Shown in pieces: positions 1,961 through 57,393 of a stretch of DNA of 64,000 nucleotides (positions are counted from its first letter, which is position 1; each line of letters starts with the position of its first letter). Position numbers and translations under genes: made by a program. Source of the stretch: Candidatus Bathyarchaeota archaeon (GTDB lineage Archaea; Thermoproteota; Bathyarchaeia; TCS64); assembly GCA_963771885.1 (NCBI GenBank), contig CAVYVF010000023.1, positions 328,668 through 392,667 of the forward strand, written 5' to 3'. The notes beneath the pieces were generated by a model. That model did no database searches. It saw only the letters and a list, made by a program, of their open reading frames with translations, and was not told where the DNA came from.

Positions 1961-3102
1961 ACCGCCCAGCCGACAAACAATTTCCATAATAGATGTTCTA
2001 GGACCACCTCGGGCTTGTCTCGCCCGAATATCCTGAAGTGGTTCTTCCCCATCGCCTCGACAAGGTCTCCGATGCGGTATCGGGGCAGCATGACGGTGGA
2101 GATTATTATCCGCCCCCATTCCCCCCGCTTCATCTCATGGAGCATCTTCAGGCCCGAGGCCGTCTCGACCTCGAAGAGGTAAACATCGTAGTTGGGTGAG
2201 ACGTAGGGGAGTTCGTTCCTCTGCTGGGCGAAGGCGCCCTCGGTCGCGCTGTATAGCTCCACCACAGGGACGTCGCCGTAGAGGGCTCGCAGCCGCGGCG
2301 CGTACTCCTGCTGTATCTTCGCCACACTCGTGCTGTAGATGACCTTGAGCTTCCAGATGTCCTTGGGTGCGACGCCGTGCTTCTTTTTGACGTATCTCGC
2401 GAAGCCCATCTCGACGGGTGCGACGCCTATTATGCTGGTGACCTCTTTCTCTTTCGCTTTCTGGTAGATGAACTCGTAGCGCTTTTCCCATCCCTCTGAG
2501 GTGAGGTCGGTCTTGAGGGCGTCTATCTCCTCCTGCCGTGGCACCAATGCGAGCCCCATCATCATCGGGTTGAGCTTCGCGTATGTCCCCGAACTGAAGC
2601 CGTAGACCACCTCCTTACTCCCCTGGGTGAGGACTCGCATGTTGCTGGGAAACTGCAGGTTCAAAACACCGCCAGCAAGCAGGTCTAGCCCACCATTGTT
2701 CATCGAAAAGTTGAGAACCGCCCTGGAGCCGCACCTGATGAGATCTTGTAAGTGCTTCGGTGTAACTGGGATGACCTTTGATTCCCCGGTGGAGCCGCGG
2801 GTCATAACCCACGTTATAGGCTCCTCGTCGAGGAAGACGAGGTGCCCCTCGCTGCGCACCCTTTCAAACCACGGCTCTAGATCTCGATACCTGACGGCGG
2901 GGAACCTCTCCCTGTACTCGGCGATGGATGAGATGCCCTCGACGCCGTATGTCCGTCCGTACTCCGTCTTTGCGTAGCCATCTAGCAGTTTGCGCAGAAC
3001 CTTGTCCTGCGCTGCGGCGGGGTCGGCGAGCCCCTGCTCCCATGCGGCGAGGTTCCTTGTGATCCGTCCTATAGGGTCCTCGAACAAATTCTGACGAGCC
3101 AA
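1957..3102 (-). CDS. GH3-like / adenylate-forming enzyme family protein
   Basis: 381 aa; TRGSTGESKVIPVT motif resembles the GH3 acyl-adenylate SSGTSxGxxK P-loop-like motif. Confidence 0.4.
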   Translation of the reverse strand: MARQNLFEDPIGRITRNLAAWEQGLADPAAAQDKVLRKLLDGYAKTEYGRTYGVEGISSIAEYRERFPAVRYRDLEPWFERVRSEGHLVFLDEEPITWVMTRGSTGESKVIPVTPKHLQDLIRCGSRAVLNFSMNNGGLDLLAGGVLNLQFPSNMRVLTQGSKEVVYGFSSGTYAKLNPMMMGLALVPRQEEIDALKTDLTSEGWEKRYEFIYQKAKEKEVTSIIGVAPVEMGFARYVKKKHGVAPKDIWKLKVIYSTSVAKIQQEYAPRLRALYGDVPVVELYSATEGAFAQQRNELPYVSPNYDVYLFEVETASGLKMLHEMKRGEWGRIIISTVMLPRYRIGDLVEAMGKNHFRIFGRDKPEVVLEHLLWKLFVGWAV

Positions 3103-3551
3103 TATTGCGAACTCATCGTTATAGAGATTCGCCCACGCTCAACCCGCGCCGCACACGCTAAAAGAGGGAGGAGTACACAAAATAACTAGAAAAAGATCCC
3201 GTTGGTTGAAAGAAGCTAAACAAATAAGCTTGTTAGAGATCGAAAGTGTACATTTTACACAATGACGCTAAACTATACAAAAAGTGCACTCAAAACGACG
3301 TTTTCGGACACGCTGCCCTACATCGCTGCGAAATAACCCGTTTTCCATATGAACTACAAGCACACCGGTTATAAAAACGGGGTCATCCCAATCGGCAAAA
3401 AAACACGCCGTTCCCTTAGAGGGTTCCGGAAACACCACCAATCTCAACAAAAGAAGCATATACACCCTACAAATCCCCGCAGAGAATCACCCGCACATTC
3501 GACCCAAAATAAAGGCTCCACTTTTTATTCGGAGACCCACCCGATACCCCA

Positions 3552-4304
3552 GTGAAACCCATGAAGAAACAAGTCATCCTCACAGTAGCCGAGTCGAAGA
3601 GGCTAATCGCAAAGGGAGTCGCCGCCCTACCCGAGGTACAAGGCGCAATGCAAGAGGGATACGTCGTAGTCGCCACGGGTACAACTAACGCCTACATCCT
3701 CCAGGAGCTAAAGGGCGAGAAGTTCGACCTACGCAGATACCGTAGCGGAATCACAACCCCACAGGTACCCGAGAAACAGCCAGAGAAACAGGGCGAGCCC
3801 ATCCCCGACGTCGTCTTCCGAAAAGGCGAGGTCGCCAAGGAGCTCGACCGCTACAACGCCGTCAAGGTAATGGGCAAGAACGACGTCTACATCAAAGGCG
3901 CCAACGCCCTCGACTACGTCGGGCAGATGGCAGGGGTCCTCATCGCAGGCGAATCCGGCGGCACAGTCGGCGCCGTCCTAGGCACAATAATCGGCAAGAA
4001 GATCACACTCCTTATCCCCATCGGGCTCGAAAAGCTCGTCTACGAGGACATGAACGAGCTACACATGCTAACCATGGACCCCGACAGCGAGGGACCAGCC
4101 ATCTGGCCCATAACCGGCCTCATCTTCACCGAGATCGAGGCACTCGAGGTCCTCTGCGGTGTACAGGCTACCCTCATCTCAGCCGGCGGAGTCGCCGGAG
4201 CCGAGGGGAGCGTCCGCCTCCTCATTGAGGGCATCGACGAGGACGTGGAGGCCGCCGCTGAGCTCGTCAAGGGCATCAAGGGCGAGCCCCGCTACCTACT
4301 CTAA
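3552..4304 (+). CDS. conserved hypothetical protein (Gly-rich G-x-G-G segments), function unknown
   Basis: 250 aa ORF with protein-like composition; motifs VVVATGTTNAY and AGESGGTVGAVLG; no family recognised. Confidence 0.4.
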   Translation: MKPMKKQVILTVAESKRLIAKGVAALPEVQGAMQEGYVVVATGTTNAYILQELKGEKFDLRRYRSGITTPQVPEKQPEKQGEPIPDVVFRKGEVAKELDRYNAVKVMGKNDVYIKGANALDYVGQMAGVLIAGESGGTVGAVLGTIIGKKITLLIPIGLEKLVYEDMNELHMLTMDPDSEGPAIWPITGLIFTEIEALEVLCGVQATLISAGGVAGAEGSVRLLIEGIDEDVEAAAELVKGIKGEPRYLL

Positions 4305-4307
4305 ACG

Positions 4308-5171
4308 GTGCTCACGGTGCTCAGAGACGAGACCTTAAACCGCCTTGCGAAGCACAGACTAACCGCCGAGGCTACACTCGACGAGCAGCAGCTCATCGAC
4401 GCTGGGGTAATAACTGCCCTCATCGACGCTTCTGGTCTCAAAGCGGAGGATACCGCACTGGAGATCGGACCAGGCGCGGGCAACATCACCGTCGAGCTGG
4501 CGAAGAGGAGTAAAAAAGTCTACACAGTTGAGAAGAACCCAAAGTTCCTCCCACTCCTCAAGGAGAGGCTAGAGGGGAGCAACGTTGAGGTCATACTCGG
4601 CGACGCCCTCACAATCTACCTCCCACAGTTTGACGTCCTCGTCTCAAACCTACCCTATGCAATAATCGAGGCAGTCATGCAAAGGCTAAAGTATCTACAT
4701 TTCCGAGCCGCATCCCTTCTAGTTCCGATCTCACTCGCCAATATTCTCACCGCGAGACACGGCGAGCTACAATACAGCAAGCTAACCCTCGAAGCTAACC
4801 TCTTCTTCCACGTCTCTCTAGTGAAGGTGGTCAAGCAGTCCGCTTACCACCCTGAGCCGAAAACGGAGACCGCCATAATCAACCTGAAGCCTAGGAAGGC
4901 AACCGAAAAAGGCGAAGCCGTCATCTGGCACCTCCTCAAGCAGAGGGACAAGAAAGTAACTAACGCGCTGCGGGAAGCTCTCATCTCCATAGAGGGGTAT
5001 CCCCAAACGAAGAATGCGGCTAAGGAAGCGATCACAATGCTCCAATTGAACAATCAACTACTCGAGAAACGTGTCTACTCCCTCAGCCTCGCAGACGTCG
5101 AGTTGATACGCAGCCGTTTAGACGAGGACGCCGCTAAACACCCGCCAGGCGAGCACCGATATAGCGGGTAG
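4308..5171 (+). CDS. ksgA: 16S rRNA (adenine1518/1519-N6)-dimethyltransferase KsgA/Dim1
   Basis: GTG start; SAM motif LEIGPGAGNIT and NLPY catalytic motif. Confidence 0.75.
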   Translation: MLTVLRDETLNRLAKHRLTAEATLDEQQLIDAGVITALIDASGLKAEDTALEIGPGAGNITVELAKRSKKVYTVEKNPKFLPLLKERLEGSNVEVILGDALTIYLPQFDVLVSNLPYAIIEAVMQRLKYLHFRAASLLVPISLANILTARHGELQYSKLTLEANLFFHVSLVKVVKQSAYHPEPKTETAIINLKPRKATEKGEAVIWHLLKQRDKKVTNALREALISIEGYPQTKNAAKEAITMLQLNNQLLEKRVYSLSLADVELIRSRLDEDAAKHPPGEHRYSG

Positions 5172-5347
5172 ACAGAGCGCACCCAAAACTAGGGCAAGCT
5201 TTGCGATACTCTTCACCGGCATATTCTTCACACATAACAGCCCCGCAGCCACAGTCTTAATCCTAGGGAACCGAACAACCGTTCTAAAACCCCGAACGCT
5301 ATGGCGAAATTGAAATAGTACAGATGCGAAGTGCCTATTGAGAGACC

Positions 5348-5593
5348 TTGAAGGCATACGTACTCTTGAATACTGAGCTAGGGAAGGAACCCGAGGTCAT
5401 CAAGGCGATGAAGGGCGCTAAGGAGGTCAAAAACATATACAGCCTCTACGGCATCTACGACGTAATCGTCGAGGTCGAGGCCGAGACGATGGAGAAAGTG
5501 AAGGAGGTCGTCTTCAACCGCATAAGGCGGCTTGACAACGTGAAGAGCACCATCACCCTGATCACTTACGGCGAACCTGTAACTAACCCGTAG
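5348..5593 (+). CDS. stand-alone Lrp/AsnC-type RAM (ligand-binding) domain protein
   Basis: 81 aa; YVLLNTELGKEPEV...GIYDVIVEVEAE pattern typical of AsnC C-terminal / RAM domains. Confidence 0.5.
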   Translation: MKAYVLLNTELGKEPEVIKAMKGAKEVKNIYSLYGIYDVIVEVEAETMEKVKEVVFNRIRRLDNVKSTITLITYGEPVTNP

Positions 5594-5705
5594 ATGTCTA
5601 CATCTAGACCGCCGACCTCCACACGTTTCTTAGACGACCGACAATACACGCCCGCGAGCCCTCTATAGAGACAATACTCGCAATAAGATACGGTTTTATC
5701 TCTGT

Positions 5706-6812
5706 TTGAGAGTCTCCATCGCGGTAAAGAACATGAGCAACGGTGGAGCAATAGGCTTCGGCGGATTCCTCCTCGGACTTGGGGCCGGATACCTTGTGTT
5801 CAGGGAGCTCAACCTCGCGGTGAATAGCCTCGCGTGGATACTGATGATAATCGGGGCGACCATCATACTCTCAGCCTTGATACGCTATGCAAGTCCAAAC
5901 CTCGGGATACACAGGATAGTCGGCGGACTCGCCGGCGGACTCGTCTTTGCCCTATTCCTCACCCAGGGATTCAACTTCTTCTCAGGAATATTCAACACAG
6001 GCAACACCCTCCTACCCTACTCGACGACAGAGGTAAAGACCTATACGGGACCCAGCCCAAGCGACTCCATCTACCTCCGCCTCGGCTCGATAAACGGGCA
6101 GATCATGCTCAGCACATGGGACAAGCCCGAGTACAGCATCGAGGCGACAATCATCGCCCGCGGCGCCACCCAGTCTGAGGCAGATAGCAACCTCGCCGCC
6201 CTTAACAAGGAGCTCACAACGGAGGAGACTACCGCCCAGCAGAAGCTCACACTCCTCTACACATCCAACCTCCTCAACAACCCTCACCAGATCAACGTTG
6301 TAGTCACGCTCCCCGCATCAGCTACCCTCGATCTCGACCTCACGAGCAGCAACGGCGACATCACTCTCACAGATGTAGACGGAGGTTCCGTTGTCGTCCA
6401 CACGAGCAACGCAGCGCTACAGCTCGACAACGTGCGCGCTGACACCATCCGCGCATCGACATCCAACGGTGCTATAACGGGCACAGTCGACGCCTCAAAC
6501 TGCATACTCGACACCAGCAACGCACGCATCAACATACAGGTCCTTTCTACCACCAGCGGGTCATACACACTTGACACGAGCAACGGCGCGGTGAATCTCA
6601 CAGTCGGCTCATCAGCCTCCTACAGGCTCAATGCCGAGACAAGTAACGCCGACGTCACTTTCACCCTCCCCAACTTGACATACACACGCGACACCAGAAC
6701 ATCCAAGGTAGCCCAGACAGTCGGCTACGACACTGCGGACACTAAGATAACCGTGAACATCCAAACCAGCAACAGCGACGTAACAGTGAACAGGAACGTC
6801 GCTGGCATCTAG
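5706..6812 (+). CDS. DUF4097-like putative adhesin / beta-helix repeat membrane protein
   Basis: N-terminal TM helices, then at least 7 periodic repeats of TSNG(D/A)(I/V)TL-type beta-strand units (TSSNGDITLTDV, STSNGAITGTV, DTSNGAVNLTV, ETSNADVTFTL, QTSNSDVTVN). Confidence 0.55.
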   Translation: MRVSIAVKNMSNGGAIGFGGFLLGLGAGYLVFRELNLAVNSLAWILMIIGATIILSALIRYASPNLGIHRIVGGLAGGLVFALFLTQGFNFFSGIFNTGNTLLPYSTTEVKTYTGPSPSDSIYLRLGSINGQIMLSTWDKPEYSIEATIIARGATQSEADSNLAALNKELTTEETTAQQKLTLLYTSNLLNNPHQINVVVTLPASATLDLDLTSSNGDITLTDVDGGSVVVHTSNAALQLDNVRADTIRASTSNGAITGTVDASNCILDTSNARINIQVLSTTSGSYTLDTSNGAVNLTVGSSASYRLNAETSNADVTFTLPNLTYTRDTRTSKVAQTVGYDTADTKITVNIQTSNSDVTVNRNVAGI

Positions 6813-49128: not shown

Positions 49129-49848
49129 ATGACAGACGTCCTCGCACGCGTCAAGTGGGGCGCACCCGCGCTTAGCCTCCTCGCCGATGCTAAGCGGCTC
49201 GCGCCGGGGAAGCCGGCGATCATCCACATCCGCCACACAGAGCGCCCCGGGGTTACGGGGCCGAACAGCAACATGCTCCTCTCGACGCCGAACGGTAAAG
49301 CGGCCGCCATCGAGTTCGGCGAGAACTTGCCCGCGGAGAGGAGTTACCGTCTCTACTATACAGCCGTCAGCCGCTCAAAGGAGTCGGCGCAATCCATAAT
49401 CGAGGGGATCAGGAGCAGCAATGGGAAAGCGGAGATCGTTGGTGAGTTCCCATTCCGCACATCATTCGACCCGCAGGCCCTCGATGACTATATTGACCGC
49501 GTGATTAAGAAGTGCGGGGACGAGGACGCCGCCGTGGCGGAGATGATGAACAGGTGGCTCTCGGGCCTCGCGCCGCCGGACGTGTTCCGCCCCAGCGACG
49601 AGTTCGCCAGGCTTGTCGCAGACTACGCCATCGCTCGCCTCGACACCGCGACGCCGGACACAGTCGACGTATATGTGACCCACGACACGTGGGTTGGTTC
49701 ATGCCTCTTCCACTGGTTCGGGATACCGATGCCTCTGGACGGCGTCAGGTTCCTTGACGGCTACCTGCTGCAGCCCCTCGACAGGGAGATGGCTGTGTGG
49801 TTCAGGGGCAAGGCGATGAGGATTGAGTACCCCCACTGGTGGGCTTAG
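49129..49848 (+). CDS. histidine phosphatase superfamily (phosphoglycerate mutase-like) protein
   Basis: IIHIRHTER (RHG/RHxE catalytic motif) near the N-terminus. Confidence 0.55.
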   Translation: MTDVLARVKWGAPALSLLADAKRLAPGKPAIIHIRHTERPGVTGPNSNMLLSTPNGKAAAIEFGENLPAERSYRLYYTAVSRSKESAQSIIEGIRSSNGKAEIVGEFPFRTSFDPQALDDYIDRVIKKCGDEDAAVAEMMNRWLSGLAPPDVFRPSDEFARLVADYAIARLDTATPDTVDVYVTHDTWVGSCLFHWFGIPMPLDGVRFLDGYLLQPLDREMAVWFRGKAMRIEYPHWWA

Positions 49849-50552
49849 AGACCCTTCCTCAGCGCCTCGACGTCGGATGGCGGGTAGCCCGAGTAGAACT
49901 TGCTGAAGTAGCCGTAGGCGTCACGCCCCTCTCCGAGGTGTCTTTTCACCTTCCCCGCCCACTCGGCGGTCTCCGCCGCCTTGTCCACCTGCACCTCCCC
50001 CCTCTCGGCGACCACCGCCTTCCTATCTCCTTCCCAGCGGAAGTAGGCGAAGCCCGCCGTATCCACCTTGGGCGCCTCCGCCCTGTTTGTCGAGGCGAGG
50101 GCGACGCCGTGGTCGCGCAGCAGCTTGTACGTCTCCTCTGAGAACCAGCCCCGGTTCCTGAATTCGGCGGCGACCAGGCGCTTCCTCGGCAGGGCTTCGA
50201 GCAGGTCGTTGAGGGCTTTGTACTCGGGCTTGAGGAAGGGCGGGAACTGTAGGAGGAGTGGCCCCAGCTTGTTGCCCATCACCTCCATGTGGCGGAGGAA
50301 GACGTAGAGCCTCTCAGCGTCGTATCTGAGGCCGGGAACATGAGTCACGGTCTGGGGGAACTTGGCTGCGAACCTGAACTCCTCGGGTACCGAGTCTCTC
50401 CACGCCTCGATGGTGAAGACGCTTGGTATCCTGTAGAACGTGGCGTCTATCTCGACCGAGTTCATAGTCTTCGCGTACTCGGCGAGGTACCTCGTCGGCT
50501 TCGTGCCTTCGGGGTAGAGTTTGCCTACCCAGAACCTGTAGCTCCACCCCAT
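49845..50552 (-). CDS. DUF72 (YecE-like) family protein
   Basis: WSYRFWVGKLYPEG...YFSKFYSGYPP pattern typical of DUF72; sits directly downstream of the LigD ligase gene on the same strand. Confidence 0.55.
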   Translation of the reverse strand: MGWSYRFWVGKLYPEGTKPTRYLAEYAKTMNSVEIDATFYRIPSVFTIEAWRDSVPEEFRFAAKFPQTVTHVPGLRYDAERLYVFLRHMEVMGNKLGPLLLQFPPFLKPEYKALNDLLEALPRKRLVAAEFRNRGWFSEETYKLLRDHGVALASTNRAEAPKVDTAGFAYFRWEGDRKAVVAERGEVQVDKAAETAEWAGKVKRHLGEGRDAYGYFSKFYSGYPPSDVEALRKGL

Positions 50553-50566
50553 CGTGCCGAGGTAGG

Positions 50567-51958
50567 CTACTCCCGGCGCTTGAAGAGGAGCCAGTTCTTC
50601 TCACCAGCCTTAGTGAAGTGGACGAGCTCGTAGCCGCCCCTGAGACGCTCCCCGTGGATGACTATGGAGACCTTCTCCGGCGTCCACTCGACGGTCTCGT
50701 AGGTGCCCCTGTCCCAAATCTTGACGGTGCCCGCACCGTACTCACCCTTCGGGATCTCTCCCTCGAAGCCACCATAGTCTAGGGGGTGATCCTCCACAGC
50801 GACGGCGAGGCGCCTCTCCCCCGACTTCTCGGGCGGCCCCTTCGGCACCGCCCAGCTCTTCAGCGCACCGTCCCGCTCCAACCTGAAGTCCCAGTGCAGG
50901 TGGCTCGCGTGGTGCTCCTGGACGACATACATGTTTCCCTTCAGTTTCGTGCCTTCGCCGACGGGCTCGGGGCTCTTCGAGAAGTTCCTCTTAGAATTGT
51001 ACTCTTCGAGGGTCAAGGGCTTCACCTGCGATAGTGTGCAGTCGCGGGGGGTTTTATCGGTTCTCAGTCTGATGAACCGGGGGGCACGCAGGCGGTCGTC
51101 GTCGGTTAGGTTCTGGTAACCGACCTCGGCGACGACGCTTGGTTTGAGCCATGTGGAGTACGCGGGGATGTCTGGGGCGTCGACCTGTTTCTCCTGCGTC
51201 TCGTATGGGCGGAAGGCGGCGATCAACTCGCGGAGCTTCTTCTCAGTGAAACCCGTACCCACCCTGCCAACGAAGGTCAGCTTATCCCCTTCGTAGAGCC
51301 CGAGTAGCAGCGCCCCGAAGGAGTCCGCCCTGTTACCCGTCCCCCTCGTGTAACCAACGACGACGCAGTCCGCCGTCTTCACCCTCTTCACCTTTAGCCA
51401 TTCCTTGCTCCTCTCCCCCGGGCGGTAGAGGCTGCGTAGCTTCTTAGCGACGACGCCTTCTAGCCCTTTCGCGGCGGCCGCCTCGTAGTAGGCCTCCCCC
51501 TTCTCCTCGACGTAGCTTGAGACGACGACATGCTCCCCGTCCCGGAGCGATTCTCTGAGTATCTTCTTACGCTCGTTCAGTGGCTTCGAGGTTAGGGGTT
51601 TTCCGTCCTTTTCGAGTATGTCGAAGACGACGTATGTGCTCGGCGTCTCCCTTGCCTCCCTTTCTATGTCGCGGGGCTTGGACGCCTGCACCCGCTTAGC
51701 GACCGCTTGGAAATCAGGGCGCCCGCCCTTCATGACGATAATCTCGCCGTCGACGACGACGTTCGACGCCAGCTTGGTGAGCTCGGCGAGTTCGGGAAAC
51801 TTCATCGTGATGTCGTTGTCATTCCTACTAAGTATCTGTAGTTTCTCGCCGATGTGGGCTATGGCGCGTATGCCGTCCCACTTTACCTCGAAGAGCCATC
51901 CACCCCGGCTAAAGGGGGCGTCGGCGGGCTCCGCGAGCATCGGCTGGTACTTCATCAC
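50567..51958 (-). CDS. ligD: ATP-dependent DNA ligase LigD, ligase domain fused to C-terminal 3'-phosphoesterase (PE) domain
   Basis: N-terminal KWDGIR adenylation motif I, EGVVAKK motif V, OB domain; C-terminal VVQEHHASHLHWDFRLE...WAVPKGP...EDHPLDY...WDRGTY PE signature. Confidence 0.8.
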   Translation of the reverse strand: MMKYQPMLAEPADAPFSRGGWLFEVKWDGIRAIAHIGEKLQILSRNDNDITMKFPELAELTKLASNVVVDGEIIVMKGGRPDFQAVAKRVQASKPRDIEREARETPSTYVVFDILEKDGKPLTSKPLNERKKILRESLRDGEHVVVSSYVEEKGEAYYEAAAAKGLEGVVAKKLRSLYRPGERSKEWLKVKRVKTADCVVVGYTRGTGNRADSFGALLLGLYEGDKLTFVGRVGTGFTEKKLRELIAAFRPYETQEKQVDAPDIPAYSTWLKPSVVAEVGYQNLTDDDRLRAPRFIRLRTDKTPRDCTLSQVKPLTLEEYNSKRNFSKSPEPVGEGTKLKGNMYVVQEHHASHLHWDFRLERDGALKSWAVPKGPPEKSGERRLAVAVEDHPLDYGGFEGEIPKGEYGAGTVKIWDRGTYETVEWTPEKVSIVIHGERLRGGYELVHFTKAGEKNWLLFKRRE

Positions 51959-52749
51959 TTCTTCATCTGCGCCAGTGTCTGCTCTAAGGCTACCATCAGT
52001 TCCTTGACCTCCTCCTTCTTCTCGGGTTTTTCGACGTGGATAGTCTCGCCTTTGAGCTTCTTCTTGATCAGCTTCTCAACGTTCTCGCGGTAGGTGTCCT
52101 TGTACTCGGTTATGTCGAATTCGCCAGTAAGGTTATCAAGTATCTTGTAGGCGAGCTCCAGTTCCTTCTTGCTCGGCTGCTTCAGCTCCTTCAGGTCCTT
52201 GACCGTCATCGGCTCTATGACCTCGTTTGGGTAGCGTAGCGTCGTGAGTATGAGGGCGCCTTTGTAGCTGTGTATAAGGACGGGGTACTCCTTCGTACGC
52301 ATTGTGTAGCGCCCCACCCCCGCCATGCCTTTCTTCTCCAAAGCTGAGTAGAGGAGCCCGTAGGCGTCCACGCTCTTGTCGGGGCCGAGGATGTAACTGC
52401 TAAGGAAGTAGAGGGGATCGACGCCCAAGTACTGGACGAACTTGTCAATCTTAATGCGGCGGTCGGACTCGGGGCGTATGGCGTCGAGCTCCTCCTTCGT
52501 GAAGGTGACGAACTCCCCCTTCTCAACCTCGTAGCCGCGTGCCACGTCCGACCATTCCACGACCTCGTTGTCGTAGGTGCAGACCCTCTGGTACCTCAGC
52601 GGACACCCGTCCTTCTTACGTAGGAAGTGGAAGCTGTAGCTCTTGTCCCTGATCATCGTGTATAGCTTCACGGGCACGTTCACGAGCCCGATGCTTATCA
52701 TGCCACTCCAAAAGCTCCGTCCGGCTGGCGCCTGCTCCTCATCGCTCAA
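51955..52749 (-). CDS. ku: Ku protein (NHEJ DNA end-binding)
   Basis: RSFWSGMISIGLVNVPVKLY Ku core start. Probable TTG start around 52749 (or ATG at 52701); the long ORF to 52926 is likely non-coding run-on. 4-nt overlap with ligD. Confidence 0.75.
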   Translation of the reverse strand: MSDEEQAPAGRSFWSGMISIGLVNVPVKLYTMIRDKSYSFHFLRKKDGCPLRYQRVCTYDNEVVEWSDVARGYEVEKGEFVTFTKEELDAIRPESDRRIKIDKFVQYLGVDPLYFLSSYILGPDKSVDAYGLLYSALEKKGMAGVGRYTMRTKEYPVLIHSYKGALILTTLRYPNEVIEPMTVKDLKELKQPSKKELELAYKILDNLTGEFDITEYKDTYRENVEKLIKKKLKGETIHVEKPEKKEEVKELMVALEQTLAQMKK

Positions 52750-53254
52750 TGGTAACCCCGGTTTGAACCTCGGAAGCCATGAGTTTAACCTTTTCACACA
52801 ATGAAACTGAATAGGGTATTTGTCCGCCCCATCGCGAATGAGAAGATTACGAGCCCAGAGAGTATTATTGCGACTACATCCATCAGTGTCTGGTACCTCG
52901 CGTCTAACTTGCTGAACCACCGCCACCAGATGAACCAGGAGAAGACAAACGCTAGCAACACGAAGATCGAAATGTCGCTAACGTCGATGAATATTGTGTC
53001 ACTCACCGGGTGTCAAGCTGGTTCTTAGAACTCGCCGCTTTAACGGTTTTCTTTGCTTTGGGAAATTATTGGGTGTGTTATTTGGGATGGGTTATCAGCC
53101 GCCGTTCACTCGGACCTCTGAAGGCGTGGAAGCGTGAAGAAGCCGACGAAGGAGCAACTGAAGAAGGGATGCGTCATCTGCGTGAAGTTGATGACGGGTG
53201 ACTATCACGGCGCGGTCATTGACCTTAGCCACGATGCAGGCTTCTTTGACAAGC

Positions 53255-54124
53255 TCATGAGGATGCCTTGGATTCGCGGCTCTTCCACTTCTTAGAAGCC
53301 CAGAAGTCCTTCCAGTGGTCCTGCCTCTCCGGGACGTTCTTCAGAGTGAATCTTATGGGATCGAGGTCGTCTAGCTCCTCCCACGTGATGGGTGTTGAAA
53401 CAGTCGCCGATGGCGTTGCTCTAAGGCTGTAGGGGCACGCCATCGTCCGCCCCCTCCCGTTCTGCGGGTAGTCTATGTAGATCGTCCCCGGCTTCTTCTG
53501 CCCCTTTTCAGAGGAGACTATGCCCGTCTCCTTTGCGAGCTCCACTCCGACGCTGTGGGCGTATGCGCGGGTCGCCTCGTAGGTCTCGCTGCGGTCGAGG
53601 CGGGCGACGACGTGGAGCCCCCTCTTCCCCGAGGTCTTCACACACGCCTCGAAACCCCTATCCTTTAGCTTACCTCTGATGAGGCGTGCCACCTTGACCA
53701 TCTCTGGGATGCCCGCGGGGGGCTGAGGGTCGAGGTCGAAGAGCACCATGTCGGGGTGATCAGGTTTATCGATCCTCGCTAGGGGGATGTGAAGCTCAAG
53801 TGCTGCGAGGTTCGCGAGCCAGATGAGTGTGTCGAGGTCGTCGCAGATAATGTAGTCGAGCTCCCTCCCCGCCGCCTCGGAATAGGTATGATGGAGGCGG
53901 ACCCAGTCCGGCGTCCCCTGAGGCGCGTCCTTCCCGTAGAAGCCCTCCGTCTCGACTCCGTCGGGGTAACGCGTCACAACAAGCGCCCGCTCCTCGAGGA
54001 AGGGCAGCATCCTAGGCGCAACGATGATGTAGTACTTCACGATGTCGAGCTTTCTCACCTCCGCGGCGGGGTAGAGGACCTTGTCTAAGTTAGAGAACTG
54101 GACCTTGGTGAGCTTCTCCATCAA
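53255..54124 (-). CDS. LigD primase-polymerase (Pol) domain protein
   Basis: KVLYPAAEVRKLDIVKYY..., DLDP and SGKRGLHV archaeo-eukaryotic primase motifs typical of the NHEJ polymerase domain. Confidence 0.8.
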   Translation of the reverse strand: MMEKLTKVQFSNLDKVLYPAAEVRKLDIVKYYIIVAPRMLPFLEERALVVTRYPDGVETEGFYGKDAPQGTPDWVRLHHTYSEAAGRELDYIICDDLDTLIWLANLAALELHIPLARIDKPDHPDMVLFDLDPQPPAGIPEMVKVARLIRGKLKDRGFEACVKTSGKRGLHVVARLDRSETYEATRAYAHSVGVELAKETGIVSSEKGQKKPGTIYIDYPQNGRGRTMACPYSLRATPSATVSTPITWEELDDLDPIRFTLKNVPERQDHWKDFWASKKWKSRESKASS

Positions 54125-54155: not shown

Positions 54156-54578
54156 CTAGGCTAGGGTTATCTCCGGCTCGAGTGTGACCTTCGCCTTTAT
54201 TGACTGCCAGATTAGGCTGTACTTCTCCGCCAGCTCCAGGGCGCGCCTCACCTTCTCTTCGGTGCAGCCGCGTATAACGATCTTCGGCCTGAGGGTAACT
54301 GCGTCGAACGTAGATGTCCTGTCTAGGAACTCCTCGACGTGCCCCTCGGCCTCGCATGTGTAGCTTATGAGGTCAATCTTGAGCCTCTCGACACTCCAGA
54401 TGAACATTAAGGCGTAGCATGTGTTCAGGGCAGCAACGAAAGCGTCCTCGGGAGTAAGCACCCCTACCACTCCCTTGATGTCGGCGGGCGCCGAGAAGGG
54501 GAGAACGGGGCCGTTACTCAGCGATACCTCGCCGCTGTGACCCCCCGTCCACCTGGCTGTGGTCCTGTAGGTCACCAA
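54156..54578 (-). CDS. OsmC/Ohr family peroxiredoxin-like protein
   Basis: 140 aa; two conserved Cys (NTCYALMF and RGCTEE) in OsmC positions. Confidence 0.65.
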   Translation of the reverse strand: MVTYRTTARWTGGHSGEVSLSNGPVLPFSAPADIKGVVGVLTPEDAFVAALNTCYALMFIWSVERLKIDLISYTCEAEGHVEEFLDRTSTFDAVTLRPKIVIRGCTEEKVRRALELAEKYSLIWQSIKAKVTLEPEITLA

Positions 54579-54980
54579 CTACGCGGCCTCCTGAATCTCA
54601 CCAATCTTCAGGGCGAGCAACTCGGCTATTCGACGTGCCGCTTTCAATCCTTCGGAGTCGAGTGTCCTCCTCCCCTTCGGTAGCTCGGCCCCCCACTCAT
54701 TGAGGAGCGCCTCGACGTCAACGCCCGCGGCGGGCTCCTTGCTGTATTTTGTTATCGCCTTGTAAGCGCAGTGCTTCCCGCAACCGTCCACCGCGATCGT
54801 CGGGTGATCCTTGGCGAAGCTGTGCTCCTGCTCCTCCCCTGCGAAAAAGAGGGGCAGGCAAATGGTCACGGTCTGATCTGATCCCTCAAGTGCTAGGCGC
54901 GTCGCGACCCTGCTTAACGTCCCCAGACCGCAGCACTCTCCACTGCAGGAGACGACGCCTATCTTCGGCTTTATCTTCAT
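54579..54980 (-). CDS. DGC-domain protein (putative Zn/thiol redox)
   Basis: VVSCSGECCG...CLPLFFAGEEQE...IAVDGCGKHCA; the conserved DGC motif plus extra Cys. Confidence 0.55.
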   Translation of the reverse strand: MKIKPKIGVVSCSGECCGLGTLSRVATRLALEGSDQTVTICLPLFFAGEEQEHSFAKDHPTIAVDGCGKHCAYKAITKYSKEPAAGVDVEALLNEWGAELPKGRRTLDSEGLKAARRIAELLALKIGEIQEAA

Positions 54981-55381
54981 GGCTGTGCCTCCCAGAGCTC
55001 GTCGACCTTCACCGCTAACTTTTCGGCGAGTATCTTGGAGAGCTTCTCACCGTCCTCGTCGAGTGTGGTGACTGTGCGTGGGCGTAAGCCGCGGTTCTCC
55101 CTAAGCAGGTCCATGACTCGGAAGTGGGCAGCGATCCTGCCCCCACTATGCTCGACGTTGTTGCCGGAGCATTCGAGGGTGCATCCGTCTACGGCGATGC
55201 ATGTGCTCCCTGCTACCTTGCGTCTCGCCTCCTCGTCGCCCATGACGAGCAGCGAGAGGCAGAGCGTATCCGCCTTCCCCGGGCGCAGTTCATCGCAGAC
55301 ACGGAAAACGGCGTCTCGGCTTATCGAGCCGAAGGACTTCCCTATGCCGCTGCAGGGGATGACGAGTATCGGCTTCTTCAA
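54977..55381 (-). CDS. DGC-domain protein paralog
   Basis: VIPCSGIGKSFG...CLSLLVMGDEEA...IAVDGCTLECS; a tandem paralog of the previous gene. Confidence 0.55.
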   Translation of the reverse strand: MKKPILVIPCSGIGKSFGSISRDAVFRVCDELRPGKADTLCLSLLVMGDEEARRKVAGSTCIAVDGCTLECSGNNVEHSGGRIAAHFRVMDLLRENRGLRPRTVTTLDEDGEKLSKILAEKLAVKVDELWEAQP

Positions 55382-55382
55382 G

Positions 55383-55835
55383 TTACATCCCCTTTATCTT
55401 CCTAAGCTCCTCGACGACCTTGATCTTCATCGACTCAAAGTAATCTTCCGCGGAGATGAGGACGCTCAATCCGGAAGCTGGTTTGATGACCGCCACCCAG
55501 CCCCCACCGTAGGGGTCACGGTTGATGACCTCGGGCTTTGACTCGATGGTGGGGTTGACTTCAACTATCTCTCCGTCGGTTGGGCTCAGTATGTCCTGCA
55601 CCATCTTCACTGTCTCGTAGCTGCCGATGAAACCCCCGTTAGTGATCTTGGTTCCGACTGGCCGAGCCTCCGCGAAGACAAGGTCGCCAGCTCTCCTCTG
55701 CGCGAAGTCGGTTAATCCAACCCTGATGCTTTCATCGGCTTCGCGTTTCACCCAGACCTCATCCCGGGAGTATAGTAGGCCCTTCTTGGCCTTGAACACG
55801 AACTTGTCAGCAGTTGTCTCGTAGTATTCACTCAT
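55383..55835 (-). CDS. glycine-cleavage H-protein-like lipoyl-carrier protein
   Basis: Start at internal ATG (MSEYYETTADKFVFK...); lipoyl-lysine motif SYETVKMVQDILSPTDGEIVEVN and GcvH-like C-terminus DPYGGGWVAVIK. Confidence 0.65.
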   Translation of the reverse strand: MSEYYETTADKFVFKAKKGLLYSRDEVWVKREADESIRVGLTDFAQRRAGDLVFAEARPVGTKITNGGFIGSYETVKMVQDILSPTDGEIVEVNPTIESKPEVINRDPYGGGWVAVIKPASGLSVLISAEDYFESMKIKVVEELRKIKGM

Positions 55836-56887
55836 CACTTCTTCTCCTCCACCTTCCCAATTCCTTTCCGGTTGCGGGGGAAGTAGCCGCATGTGTGCAG
55901 CCCGAAGCGCACTAGGCTGAGCATCAGCGGGACCTCGAAGAGGGGTCCGATGACGGTTGCCAGTGCAGCGCCACTGCCGATGCCGTACAGCGTTGTTGCC
56001 ACGGCTATGGCGACTTCGAAGTGGCTGCTCGAGCCGATGATTGTACAGTCAATGGCCGTGGGGTAGTCCCAGCGCATATACCAGGCGAGGGCGTAGGTCC
56101 ATACTATCATAACGGCGTAGTGGATGAGGTTGGGTACGGCGATGAAGAGGACGAGCAGGGGATCGCTGAGTATTATATTGCCCTGGAGGCTGAAGAGGAC
56201 GATGAGAGTGACGAGGAGGGCGAGGAAACTGACCTTACCCGCCTTGGCGCGGAATACGTCGTCGAACCACTCCTTGCCCTTGGCTGGGATGAGTATCTTC
56301 CTCGTGAGTGCGCCAGCGGCTACGGGTACGAGTATGAAGAATACGACACTCATGACGATGAGGTCCCAAGGTACAGGGATGCCACTGACGCCTAGGTAGA
56401 ACGCCGCCATAGGTGCGTAGAGGAGTATCATGAGTACCGCGTTTACAGCCGTGTTAATGAGCCCCTGCGCCATATCTCCCTTGGCGAGGAGCATCCACCA
56501 CATCACCATCGCTGTGCACGGCGACAAGCCAAGCAGTATGACGCCGGCTATGTAGTCGGGGTGCCCCGCGAGGAAGACGTTGGCGAGCAGCGTCATCAGC
56601 GCCGGCGCGATGACCCAGTTTGCGAAGACCGTGAACATTATCGGCTTCGGGTTTTTCGCCGCTTTCTTCACATCCATGAAATCGATACCGAGGATCGTCG
56701 GGTACATCATGAAGAAGAGGCAGATTCCGATGGGGATCGATATCTGGGCAAACTTTAGCGAGTCGAGGTACTGCCCGAAGCCGGGGGCGAACTTGCCTAG
56801 GAGTAGTCCGATCGCTATGCATATTCCGATCCAGACTGTTAGGTACTTTTCTATTATGCCGAGTTTCTTCTCCGACACGGCGATCAC
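55835..56887 (-). CDS. arsB: arsenite efflux transporter ACR3
   Basis: ACR3 family 10-TM protein with conserved Cys in LGLSPCTAMV and typical N-terminus KYLTVWIGICIAIG. Confidence 0.8.
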   Translation of the reverse strand: MIAVSEKKLGIIEKYLTVWIGICIAIGLLLGKFAPGFGQYLDSLKFAQISIPIGICLFFMMYPTILGIDFMDVKKAAKNPKPIMFTVFANWVIAPALMTLLANVFLAGHPDYIAGVILLGLSPCTAMVMWWMLLAKGDMAQGLINTAVNAVLMILLYAPMAAFYLGVSGIPVPWDLIVMSVVFFILVPVAAGALTRKILIPAKGKEWFDDVFRAKAGKVSFLALLVTLIVLFSLQGNIILSDPLLVLFIAVPNLIHYAVMIVWTYALAWYMRWDYPTAIDCTIIGSSSHFEVAIAVATTLYGIGSGAALATVIGPLFEVPLMLSLVRFGLHTCGYFPRNRKGIGKVEEKK

Positions 56888-56979
56888 TTTTCATCAACGT
56901 TACTACACCCTAACATATTAAGTTATGTGGATATGTGGATGGATGTATGTTTAAACACCTCGCCTCCCAAGGGACGCCT

Positions 56980-57393
56980 ATGGTCAGCGTACTGTTCATA
57001 TGCGTCCACAACGCGGGCAGGAGCCAGATAGCGGAGGCGATCTTCAACAGCCTCGCAGACGGGCGCCACCTCGCCAAGAGCGCTGGCAGCAAACCAGCAG
57101 ACCAAGTTAACCCCGTCGCAGTCGAGGCTCTGAAGGAGATAGGTATAGACATCAGCGGCAGGAAGCCAAAGAAGCTGGACGCCGACCTCGCCCTCGGGGC
57201 GGACCTAGCTATCACAATGGGCTGCGGTGACGAGCCCTGTCCCGTAGTCACCGGCGAGTTAAGGGACTGGGACCTCGAGGACCCCCATGGGCAGCCCATC
57301 GAGAAAGTCAGGGAGATCAGGGACGAGATACGACGGAGGGTCGAAGCTCTCGTCGAGGAACTCGATAAATGGTCTATACCCTCCCCGGATTAA
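56980..57393 (+). CDS. arsC: arsenate reductase, LMW-PTP family (thioredoxin-coupled)
   Basis: VLFICVHNAGRSQIAEA CX5R P-loop; downstream Cys (GCGDEPCP). Start at internal ATG 56980. Confidence 0.75.
   Translation: MVSVLFICVHNAGRSQIAEAIFNSLADGRHLAKSAGSKPADQVNPVAVEALKEIGIDISGRKPKKLDADLALGADLAITMGCGDEPCPVVTGELRDWDLEDPHGQPIEKVREIRDEIRRRVEALVEELDKWSIPSPD

Follow-up and report, generated by a model that had tools for sequence, protein, structure and literature searches.

Does an archaeal operon for non-homologous end joining (NHEJ) hold, next to Ku and the three enzymatic activities of polymerase (Pol), phosphoesterase (PE) and ligase (Lig), a further gene that belongs to the pathway, and what might its product do? 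Accounts of end joining in prokaryotes usually name either two proteins, Ku and LigD, or four activities. Archaeal NHEJ has been described as rare, with its genes, according to one preprint, not in one operon. The question arises from a 64,000-nucleotide stretch of a Bathyarchaeia contig, hereafter the window, in which the end-joining genes are followed by a gene of the DUF72/YecE family. We think it probable that this region is a chromosomal, Ku-dependent NHEJ operon in which Pol, a spacer with a promoter-like motif, Ku, a Lig-PE fusion and DUF72 follow one another, the last being a conserved, co-inherited part and a putative accessory DNA-processing enzyme.

Layout of the operon

The four minus-strand open reading frames (ORFs) that a preliminary description had placed here are all present at their positions (Table 1), and its reading of the region as a complete archaeal NHEJ locus is borne out, every domain model scoring far over its threshold and the PE catalytic residues being intact. 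GC content is even across the window, the genes beside the operon are ordinary ones of metabolism and transport, and an Rfam search over the whole length returned a single tRNA. Named close homologs point to Bathyarchaeia: a Lig-PE from Bathyarchaeota (82% identity) and the Bathyarchaeia locus L008.

Table 1. Features of the operon in transcriptional order, with positions in the window.
Feature	Position	Strand	Models or remark
Pol (stand-alone LigD-type primase-polymerase), 289 aa	53255..54124	minus	PF21686, TIGR02778
Pol-Ku spacer, 505 nt	52750..53254	minus	particular to the sublineage of the window
Ku, 264 aa, TTG start	51955..52749	minus	TIGR02772, PF02735
Lig-PE, ligase module (nucleotidyltransferase + OB), aa 1-312	51023..51958	minus	PF01068, PF04679, TIGR02779
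Lig-PE, C-terminal PE domain, aa 313-463 + stop codon	50567..51022	minus	TIGR02777
DUF72/YecE-family TIM-barrel protein, 235 aa, final operon gene	49845..50552	minus	PF01904

Ku, a homolog with the beta-barrel ring domain, scored 258.8 bits with TIGR02772 (NCBIfam, cut-off 150) and 133.5 bits with PF02735 (Pfam), and its product is identical to a called protein whose cluster-mates are named 'DNA end-binding protein Ku'. The start had been put at about 52749, rightly so: the TTG codon (MSDEEQ...) is kept in L001, a close relative of the window with the same flanks, and in L008, and we rejected a longer ORF from 52926 in its favour, the conserved start giving the called protein. Because Ku begins at this codon, its distance from Pol is 505 nt and not the 330 nt given earlier. 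The 14-nt gap between Lig-PE and DUF72 was likewise correct, but the 4-nt overlap claimed between Lig-PE and the Ku stop codon is probably 1 nt, as Lig-PE probably starts at ATG 51955 (462 aa, as in homologs) rather than at GTG 51958.

Pol scored 273.9 bits with PF21686 over aa 25-275 (Pfam) and 247.9 bits with TIGR02778 (NCBIfam, cut-off 214.7); DLD and SGxxGxH motifs are visible in its translation, and in L001, L003, L005 and most archaeal loci the conserved cluster begins with it. The spacer behind it is only 1-2 nt long in L003 and L005, while L001 and L008 have one of about 300 nt. Comparison of the window with L001 and L008 showed conservation limited to the Ku start region and the promoter-like motif TGTGAAAAGGTTAA (52785-52798), which may be a BRE/TATA promoter; scans for sigma-70 promoters and terminators, whose models do not apply to archaea, gave background level only. 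A hydrophobic ORF of 70 aa in the spacer (52794-53006) was rejected as a gene because neither L001 nor L008 conserves it.

The Lig-PE fusion among end-joining systems

The ligase half of Lig-PE matches DNA_ligase_A_M (PF01068, aa 6-191) and DNA_ligase_A_C (PF04679, aa 211-302) in Pfam and the NHEJ ligase model TIGR02779 in NCBIfam (279 bits, cut-off 227.75), and alignment A4 shows no variation at its residues of ligase motifs I, III, IV and V (K26, D28, G29, R31, F112, D113, E167, G168, K172, W187, K189 and K191, with K26 as the KxDG lysine). The claim that its C-terminus carries a full PE domain is confirmed by both profile collections, with LigD_N at aa 347-446 (Pfam) and TIGR02777 over aa 317-462 (NCBIfam, 190 bits, cut-off 144). 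The best solved relative of this domain is the PE of Methanosarcina barkeri (MbaPE; 3p43, E 7.8e-49), whose catalytic residues H36, H42, D44, R46, H78 and Y82 (PMC3082917) align with H349, H355, D357, R359, H391 and Y395 of the window protein, so that all six are present.

The fusion had been called unusual, which holds against characterised enzymes only: uncultured archaea of one large clade (Bathyarchaeia, Methanoperedens and Methanosarcinales) have it as a rule, in no fewer than 120 clusters at 90% identity, and the automatic annotation at JGI already reads ligase/phosphoesterase. The contrast with bacterial LigD stands. Bacterial LigD (PE-Lig-Pol in Pseudomonas, Pol-PE-Lig in Mycobacterium), which acts with Ku, has the same domain families and the same PE catalytic residues as the window, but PE precedes Lig in one polypeptide with Pol, whereas in the window PE follows Lig and Pol is a separate gene. 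All 23 bacterial-type loci with both domains are PE-before-Lig; most of the best 150 representatives at 50% identity match in non-collinear order, and those scanned among them (P0379, P0383 and P0480) also have PE before Lig. The window ligase is 38-43% identical to those of bacterial-type loci.

The NHEJ system of Methanocella paludicola, composed of Ku, Pol, PE and Lig (Bartlett et al., PMC4797286), has the same four activities as the window, with homologous PE, Pol and Lig, and presumably the same mechanism of ribonucleotide-dependent filling, trimming and sealing. That its enzymes are separate proteins agrees with the Methanocella-type contig L169, in which three genes lie in the order PE-Lig-Pol, the PE sharing 96% identity with that of M. 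paludicola, unlike the fusion in the window; the window proteins are 47% (PE), 36% (Pol) and 38% (Lig) identical to those of this contig. The 8.6 kb of L169 include no Ku and no DUF72, whereas the window has Ku within the operon and DUF72 appended to it. In M. arvoryzae the PE gene stands alone.

Linkage and descent of the DUF72 gene

The tight linkage of DUF72 to NHEJ genes, singled out earlier as foreign to described systems, extends beyond this genome to dozens of genomes and metagenome contigs with differing flanks, and the literature searched contained no paper tying DUF72 to end joining. In a DUF72-seeded scan of species-representative genomes, repair genes lay directly upstream on the same strand in all 14 assessable archaeal loci, which come from Bathyarchaeia (including the complete Ca. 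Bathyarchaeum tardum genome), Methanosarcinales and Methanoperedens, and in 0 of 65 bacterial loci. A ligase-seeded metagenome scan, which is unbiased for DUF72, found the gene 21-56 nt downstream in 32 of 41 assessable archaeal-type operons and adjacent in 0 of 21 bacterial-type loci (Fisher p 8e-10, descriptive only). Archaeoglobus and other Ku-positive lineages lie outside both scans. The order Pol-Ku-Lig-PE-DUF72 is conserved in L001, L003 and L005, among which the flanking contexts are unrelated (QRPTase and thiolase genes in L003; ribosomal and rRNA-methylase genes in L005, a Ca. Methanoperedens locus), and in the archaeal loci DUF72 always comes last, right after the ligase. It persists in loci that have lost PE by deletion (L012, L128 and L130); a Lig-DUF72 fusion, considered as Rosetta-stone evidence, was rejected in these three loci, where the two are separate ORFs. 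DUF72 is missing from 9 of the 41 archaeal-type loci, with no consistent replacement gene among the neighbours, which comprise HTH regulators, PPK2, an isocitrate/isopropylmalate dehydrogenase-family gene and one AP_endonuc_2 gene.

All NHEJ-linked DUF72 proteins fall into one clade of a neighbour-joining tree (bootstrap 72/100): the linkage is of single origin and restricted to the Lig-PE archaeal clade. Since it arose once, the many linked loci do not count as independent events. Pairwise DUF72 distances correlate with those of Lig (r 0.905), PE (0.856) and Ku (0.847), as tightly as the distances of the NHEJ proteins do among themselves, and the linked gene has been retained across divergence up to a p-distance of 0.70 and in two archaeal kingdoms. 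Its dN/dS of 0.14 indicates purifying selection; the values for Ku, Lig-PE and Pol are 0.04-0.12. The gaps between ligase and DUF72 are tiny or overlapping, which implies co-translation.

Residues, fold and possible role of the DUF72 protein

The DUF72/YecE family (COG1801) is widespread in bacteria, E. coli YecE included, and crystal structures have existed since 2004. PF01904 is the only Pfam match of the window protein and covers profile positions 1-216 of 217 (180.8 bits, E 4.9e-53, cut-off 25.3). The gene may extend in the 5' direction to about 50594; in the window and L001, no canonical start codon was found that would take in the conserved first strand. At 235-250 aa, the archaeal proteins are shorter than the family, and compared with solved members (1vpq, Tm1631; 1vpy and 1ztv, EF0366) the window protein belongs to a distinct archaeal clade fixed in the NHEJ operon. 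Ten residues reach 90% conservation or more in the archaeal as well as in the bacterial group (E34, F39, Y40, K64, H71, Q102, E130, R132, Y170 and R172), and six of them (F39, Y40, K64, Q102, R132 and R172) align with Tm1631 residues proposed to hold DNA. The archaeal clade has residues of its own (R41, R177, D227 and K218, the last position being Asn in 98% of bacterial sequences), among which R41, R177 and K218 are added basic residues.

The fold is that of solved family members, a xylose-isomerase-like TIM barrel that appears generic rather than specific to nucleases, and its fold neighbours are mostly sugar isomerases and epimerases. A profile search of the PDB returned DUF72 structures only and no nuclease by sequence. 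For Tm1631, DNA binding in the manner of Endonuclease IV has been modelled computationally, and the solved DUF72 structures contain no metal (PMC3828134). Compared with the TIM-barrel repair nucleases Endonuclease IV and UVDE, DUF72 gives no sequence-profile match (AP_endonuc_2, UvdE), and their His-rich trinuclear metal site is not evident in it; in structure it appears no closer to Endonuclease IV than to sugar isomerases or MbnB, and its top 60 fold neighbours do not include UVDE. Literature searches turned up no DUF72 protein with an experimentally shown activity. No consistent DNA-repair neighbourhood surrounds the closest bacterial DUF72 genes, and the nearest flanking ORFs of about 65 loci, annotated with Pfam, were set aside as a functional clue, being heterogeneous without usable signal; synteny with SURF1 was seen within Gemmatimonadaceae, and DinB_2, DNA_alkylation or AP_endonuc_2 neighbours occur sporadically (1-2 of the ~65 loci).

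By analogy with the bacterial and Methanocella systems, a Ku homodimer would encircle the broken ends and recruit the enzymes, Pol would fill gaps with a preference for ribonucleotides, PE, tethered to the ligase C-terminus, would remove 3' ribonucleotides and 3'-phosphates to leave a ligatable end, and the ligase domain would close the break. For DUF72, both a part in end joining and the kind of chemistry are inferred: translationally coupled to the ligase, it may process DNA in an accessory capacity, with phosphodiesterase or nuclease as the likeliest activity, and would clean damaged or blocked ends or lesions near the break. In favour of a DNA-related chemistry we count the ten shared residues, the basic residues added in the archaeal clade, the Tm1631 model and a published enrichment of DUF72 near damage-inducible polB2 operons (PMC11791011). 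Because it travels with repair genes across many archaea, DUF72 is a testable candidate repair factor. We go one step further only tentatively, with a proposal that may well prove wrong, namely that DUF72/YecE is an unrecognised class of DNA-processing enzymes and here a dedicated fifth activity beside Ku, Pol, PE and Lig, cleaning end chemistries or near-end lesions beyond the reach of PE.

DUF72 might instead be a passenger, captured once beside the ligase and carried along by operon inheritance or whole-operon transfer, with a function of its own unrelated to end joining, such as that of a metabolic TIM-barrel enzyme. The single origin of the linkage is consistent with this, as are the loss of DUF72 from ~22% of archaeal-type loci, the heterogeneous neighbourhoods of bacterial homologs that are never NHEJ-linked and the predominance of sugar isomerases and epimerases among the fold neighbours. 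Yet a passenger would hardly be expected to persist to such divergence in two kingdoms and in varied genomic contexts, to keep gaps that imply co-translation, to survive the precise deletion of the neighbouring PE domain or to be under purifying selection that we rate as strong as that on Pol and Lig-PE, and we consider this explanation rather unlikely.

A role in repair outside the end-joining complex is a different matter: DUF72 could be a general DNA-damage or stress enzyme, acting on non-break lesions, damaged nucleotides or ribonucleotide-containing DNA and co-regulated with NHEJ for survival of dormancy or stationary phase. In other lineages DUF72 is reported to be enriched near damage-inducible polB2 translesion operons and SRAP genes (PMC11791011), which fits such a role, as do the few bacterial neighbours of the DinB_2, DNA_alkylation or AP_endonuc_2 type and a core pocket shared by NHEJ-linked and unlinked members. 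Those neighbours are rare, however, the position of DUF72 behind the ligase is fixed, and the clade-specific R41, R177 and K218 suggest adaptation to the NHEJ context; we consider this explanation quite improbable. We judge it highly improbable that these genes form a mobile module or one for anti-phage defence and not a housekeeping repair operon. Two archaeal kingdoms that are far apart share the operon at ~55% identity, as if it had been transferred horizontally in one piece, and NHEJ has reportedly been tied to anti-phage defence in mycobacteria (PMC12848934); but PADLOC models were matched by 0 of the 4 proteins, the even GC and the metabolic and transport neighbours speak against such a module, no integrase or transposase was found in the window, and housekeeping genes flank the operon in other genomes.

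With DUF72 regarded as an accessory part of the operon, the window and about 50 related loci show that a large group of uncultured, environmentally abundant archaea has its NHEJ genes in a compact operon, with the distinct Lig-PE architecture and one additional conserved gene, and suggest that an end-cleaning step may be missing from the present picture of prokaryotic NHEJ. The compact archaeal cassette could also serve genome-editing tools in archaea. The operon gives a cheap, concrete experimental handle on DUF72/YecE, a large orphan family, for which a DNA-processing activity, if true, would be the first functional assignment.

Genes and boundaries of the operon

All four co-directional ORFs of the preliminary description (Pol, Ku, Lig-PE and DUF72) were present on the minus strand at the positions it assigned to them, and every domain call was backed by Pfam or NCBIfam. 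Pol matched PF21686 (274 bits) and TIGR02778 (248 bits), Ku matched TIGR02772 (259 bits) and DUF72 matched PF01904 (E 4.9e-53). The claim of a full 3'-phosphoesterase (PE) domain in the C-terminus of the ligase was borne out: PF13298 lies at aa 347-446, C-terminal to both DNA_ligase_A_M (aa 6-191) and DNA_ligase_A_C (aa 211-302), and TIGR02777 scores 190 bits (cut-off 144) over aa 317-462. Six residues defined by mutation in the Methanosarcina barkeri PE (H36, H42, D44, R46, H78 and Y82; PMC3082917) pair one-to-one with H349, H355, D357, R359, H391 and Y395 of the window protein, and the ligase-motif residues are invariant across the homolog alignment; judged from these alignments, the catalytic residues of PE and ligase look intact. 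The core system is of a known kind, Ku/LigD-type NHEJ.

Features of the operon and its surroundings (window positions)
Feature	Positions	Strand	Remarks
ORF converging on DUF72	49129-49848	plus	239 aa
DUF72	49845-50552	minus	235 aa
GVAYLGT-coding stretch	50553-50594	minus	
Lig-PE	50567-51958	minus	463 aa
Ku	51955-52926 (ORF)	minus	264 aa; true start 52749
Pol-Ku spacer	52750-53254	minus	
TGTGAAAAGGTTAA	52785-52798		
Hydrophobic ORF	52794-53006		70 aa
Pol	53255-54124	minus	289 aa
OsmC	54156-54578	minus	upstream of Pol, 31-nt gap
DGC-domain gene	54579-54980	minus	
DGC-domain gene	54977-55381	minus	
GCV_H-like gene	55383-55892	minus	
ACR3/SBF-type transporter	55835-56887	minus	
LMWPc/ArsC-like phosphatase	56935-57393	divergent	

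Ku starts at a TTG (52749) that is kept in the related loci L001 and L008, and its product is identical to a called protein. This start, the overlap of Lig-PE with the Ku stop and the 14-nt gap between Lig-PE and DUF72 all stood, but the distance between Pol and Ku, previously given as 330 nt, is 505 nt because of the Ku start. L001 and L008 have a spacer of approximately 300 nt, and in L003 and L005 it is 1-2 nt long; Pol and Ku abut in other lineages, and the long spacer belongs to the sublineage of the window. Across the window, L001 and L008, only the Ku start region and TGTGAAAAGGTTAA, which lies 36-49 nt 5' of the Ku start, are conserved in the spacer; a plausible reading of TGTGAAAAGGTTAA is a BRE/TATA promoter of archaeal type serving Ku-Lig-PE-DUF72. 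The hydrophobic ORF in the spacer has no counterpart in L008, and in L001 only 29 aa of it remain.

Operon-linked DUF72 genes mostly start with M-x-x-L-H-[IVL]-G-T-[M/I]-G-W-S-Y. Directly 5' of the window's DUF72 ATG, an in-frame ...GVAYLGT, a homolog of the first strand (hHhGT) seen in other DUF72 proteins, is kept in L001, L008 and L163; in the window and L001, the homologous AYLGT peptide is conserved in frame inside the 14-nt spacer. Since no ATG, GTG or TTG able to initiate AYLGT was found in the window or L001, the predicted N-terminus of DUF72 (ATG at the 50552 end), including whether the first strand is made, is uncertain. Where L163 has TTG, the window has CTG.

The closest named homologs belong to Candidatus Bathyarchaeota/Bathyarchaeia, including a protein 82% identical to Lig-PE, and all five modules of the Bathyarchaeia locus L008 are 63-82% identical to those of the window. 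GC content is even along the window, which shows no sign of a mobile element; its other genes are ordinary ones for transport and metabolism (among them a P-type ATPase, FeoB, glycine cleavage proteins, a TrmB regulator and a TPP enzyme). PADLOC defence models gave zero matches to the operon proteins. The OsmC, DGC, GCV_H-like and ACR3 genes share the strand of Pol with short gaps, an arrangement that, together with the divergent phosphatase, is the same in L001; a single transcript may join Pol to this cluster of redox and arsenic-type genes. On the other side, the 239-aa ORF converges on DUF72 with a 4-nt overlap of its stop codon; it matches neither Pfam nor PADLOC, and is kept beside DUF72 in L001 and L007 and not in more distant operons.

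The Lig-PE fusion

The Lig-PE fusion is unusual among characterised systems, as had been claimed, yet it is not rare in nature. The comparison with known systems held: a Methanocella-type contig, with a PE 96% identical to that of M. paludicola, carries three separate genes (PE-Lig-Pol, no Ku nearby), M. arvoryzae has a PE gene by itself, and in a ligase-seeded metagenome scan PE precedes Lig in 23/23 bacterial-type loci with both domains, whereas the order is Lig-then-PE in all 44 such archaeal-type loci. No description of the latter order was found in the literature searched. At 90% identity, full-length Lig-PE proteins (~462 aa) fall into at least 120 clusters, 55-89% identical to the window protein, and the named clusters are assigned to Bathyarchaeota, Thermoproteota, Methanoperedens or 'uncultured archaeon'. 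JGI annotation already names these proteins ligase/phosphoesterase. These clusters and the uniform order in archaeal-type loci show that the fusion characterises a single large lineage of archaeal NHEJ, most of it uncultured.

Among the best 150 cluster representatives at 50% identity, drawn from 1.84 billion proteins, very few show Lig followed by PE in collinear order: P0377, P0378, P0515, partial P0414 and P0507. In most of the remainder the match is broken into two or three stretches and the ligase part comes later in the protein; P0379, P0383 and P0480, the three that were scanned, are PE-then-Lig. P0507 (809 aa) is a three-domain Lig-PE-Pol LigD (PF01068 and PF04679, then PF13298, then PF21686), an order unlike both textbook bacterial arrangements. 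A long-linker subclade (L106, L108, L110, L114, L115 and L120; also L117 and L119) has 70-154 nt extra between the domains, giving proteins of 475-549 aa, and lacks DUF72 after the ligase wherever downstream DNA is available.

Linkage and descent of DUF72

The linkage between DUF72 and NHEJ genes is real, with several lines of evidence agreeing, and extends well beyond one genome. The order Pol-Ku-Lig-PE-DUF72 recurs in three Lig-PE homolog loci with different flanks: those of L001 are the same as in the window, L003 is flanked by QRPTase and thiolase genes, and L005, from Methanoperedens, by rRNA methylase, Rpb4 and L21e genes. A DUF72-seeded scan of GTDB species representatives yielded 80 loci, 15 archaeal and 65 bacterial; NHEJ genes lie immediately upstream on the same strand in 14/14 assessable archaeal loci, and Ku, Lig, PE or Pol was found within 7 kb of the bacterial DUF72 genes (35-42% identity) in 0/65. 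In the ligase-seeded scan, which is unbiased for DUF72, DUF72 starts 21-56 nt after the ligase gene in 32/41 assessable archaeal-type loci versus 0/21 bacterial-type loci (Fisher p 8e-10, a purely descriptive value given the relatedness of the loci). Of the nine archaeal-type loci that lack DUF72, most belong to the long-linker subclade. In three Ku-Lig-DUF72 loci (L012, L128 and L130), the ligase stops exactly at the Lig/PE junction, PE having been lost, and DUF72 persists in an ORF of its own, 5-60 nt further downstream.

Two other loci deserve mention. L110, without DUF72, has a convergent AP_endonuc_2 gene (xylose-isomerase-like TIM barrel; 2734-3552, minus) 0.8 kb downstream of the ligase. 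On the high-GC, bacterial-type contig L142 (1455-6413), DUF72 (1455-2165, plus) lies 0.9 kb from Ku (3053-3943, minus) and a Pol-PE-Lig LigD (3732-6413, plus), with one 291-aa ORF between; this DUF72 is not a member of the archaeal linked clade, and the proximity, a single case, could be chance.

In a neighbour-joining tree of 110 DUF72 sequences, 43/43 linked copies and one unassessable Bathyarchaeia copy form one clade (bootstrap 72/100). DUF72 has diverged in step with Lig, PE and Ku: its pairwise distances correlate with theirs at r 0.85-0.91, and the NHEJ proteins show r 0.81-0.92 among themselves. Between the window and L001, dN/dS is 0.14 for DUF72; Pol, Lig-PE and Ku have values of 0.12, 0.11 and 0.04, respectively. 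Both Thermoproteati and Methanobacteriati, two archaeal kingdoms, have the operon. The most parsimonious scenario has DUF72 entering the operon once, by capture, with long co-inheritance thereafter and probably transfer of the four genes as one unit.

A possible role for DUF72 in end joining

In the literature searched, DUF72 is the subject of computational proposals only; nothing experimental was found, and no tie to Ku or LigD. One such proposal is an Endo IV-like DNA-binding model of Tm1631, a DUF72 member of solved structure (PMC3828134, PMC4939058), whose proposed phosphate/DNA contacts Y47, Y48, K72, Q114, R145 and R191 correspond to window F39, Y40, K64, Q102, R132 and R172. These six, together with E34, H71, E130 and Y170, are at least 90% conserved in archaeal and bacterial groups alike, and the archaeal clade has the extra residues R41, R177 and K218. 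The conserved residues, fixed operon position and tight coupling suggest that DUF72 is most likely an accessory phosphodiesterase that would process DNA ends or lesions with Ku and Lig-PE. We lean towards a genuine role in NHEJ; nuclease or phosphodiesterase chemistry is put forward more tentatively.

The main rival is that DUF72 is a hitch-hiking gene of unrelated function. Next comes the alternative of a general damage-response enzyme merely co-regulated with NHEJ; one paper reports an enrichment of DUF72 genes near damage-inducible polB2 operons (PMC11791011). On our preferred reading as an accessory end- or lesion-processing enzyme, the proposal of a DNA repair function for DUF72/YecE is open to test, and it is through the Lig-PE architecture and this conserved partner that the operon differs from known Ku/LigD-type NHEJ.
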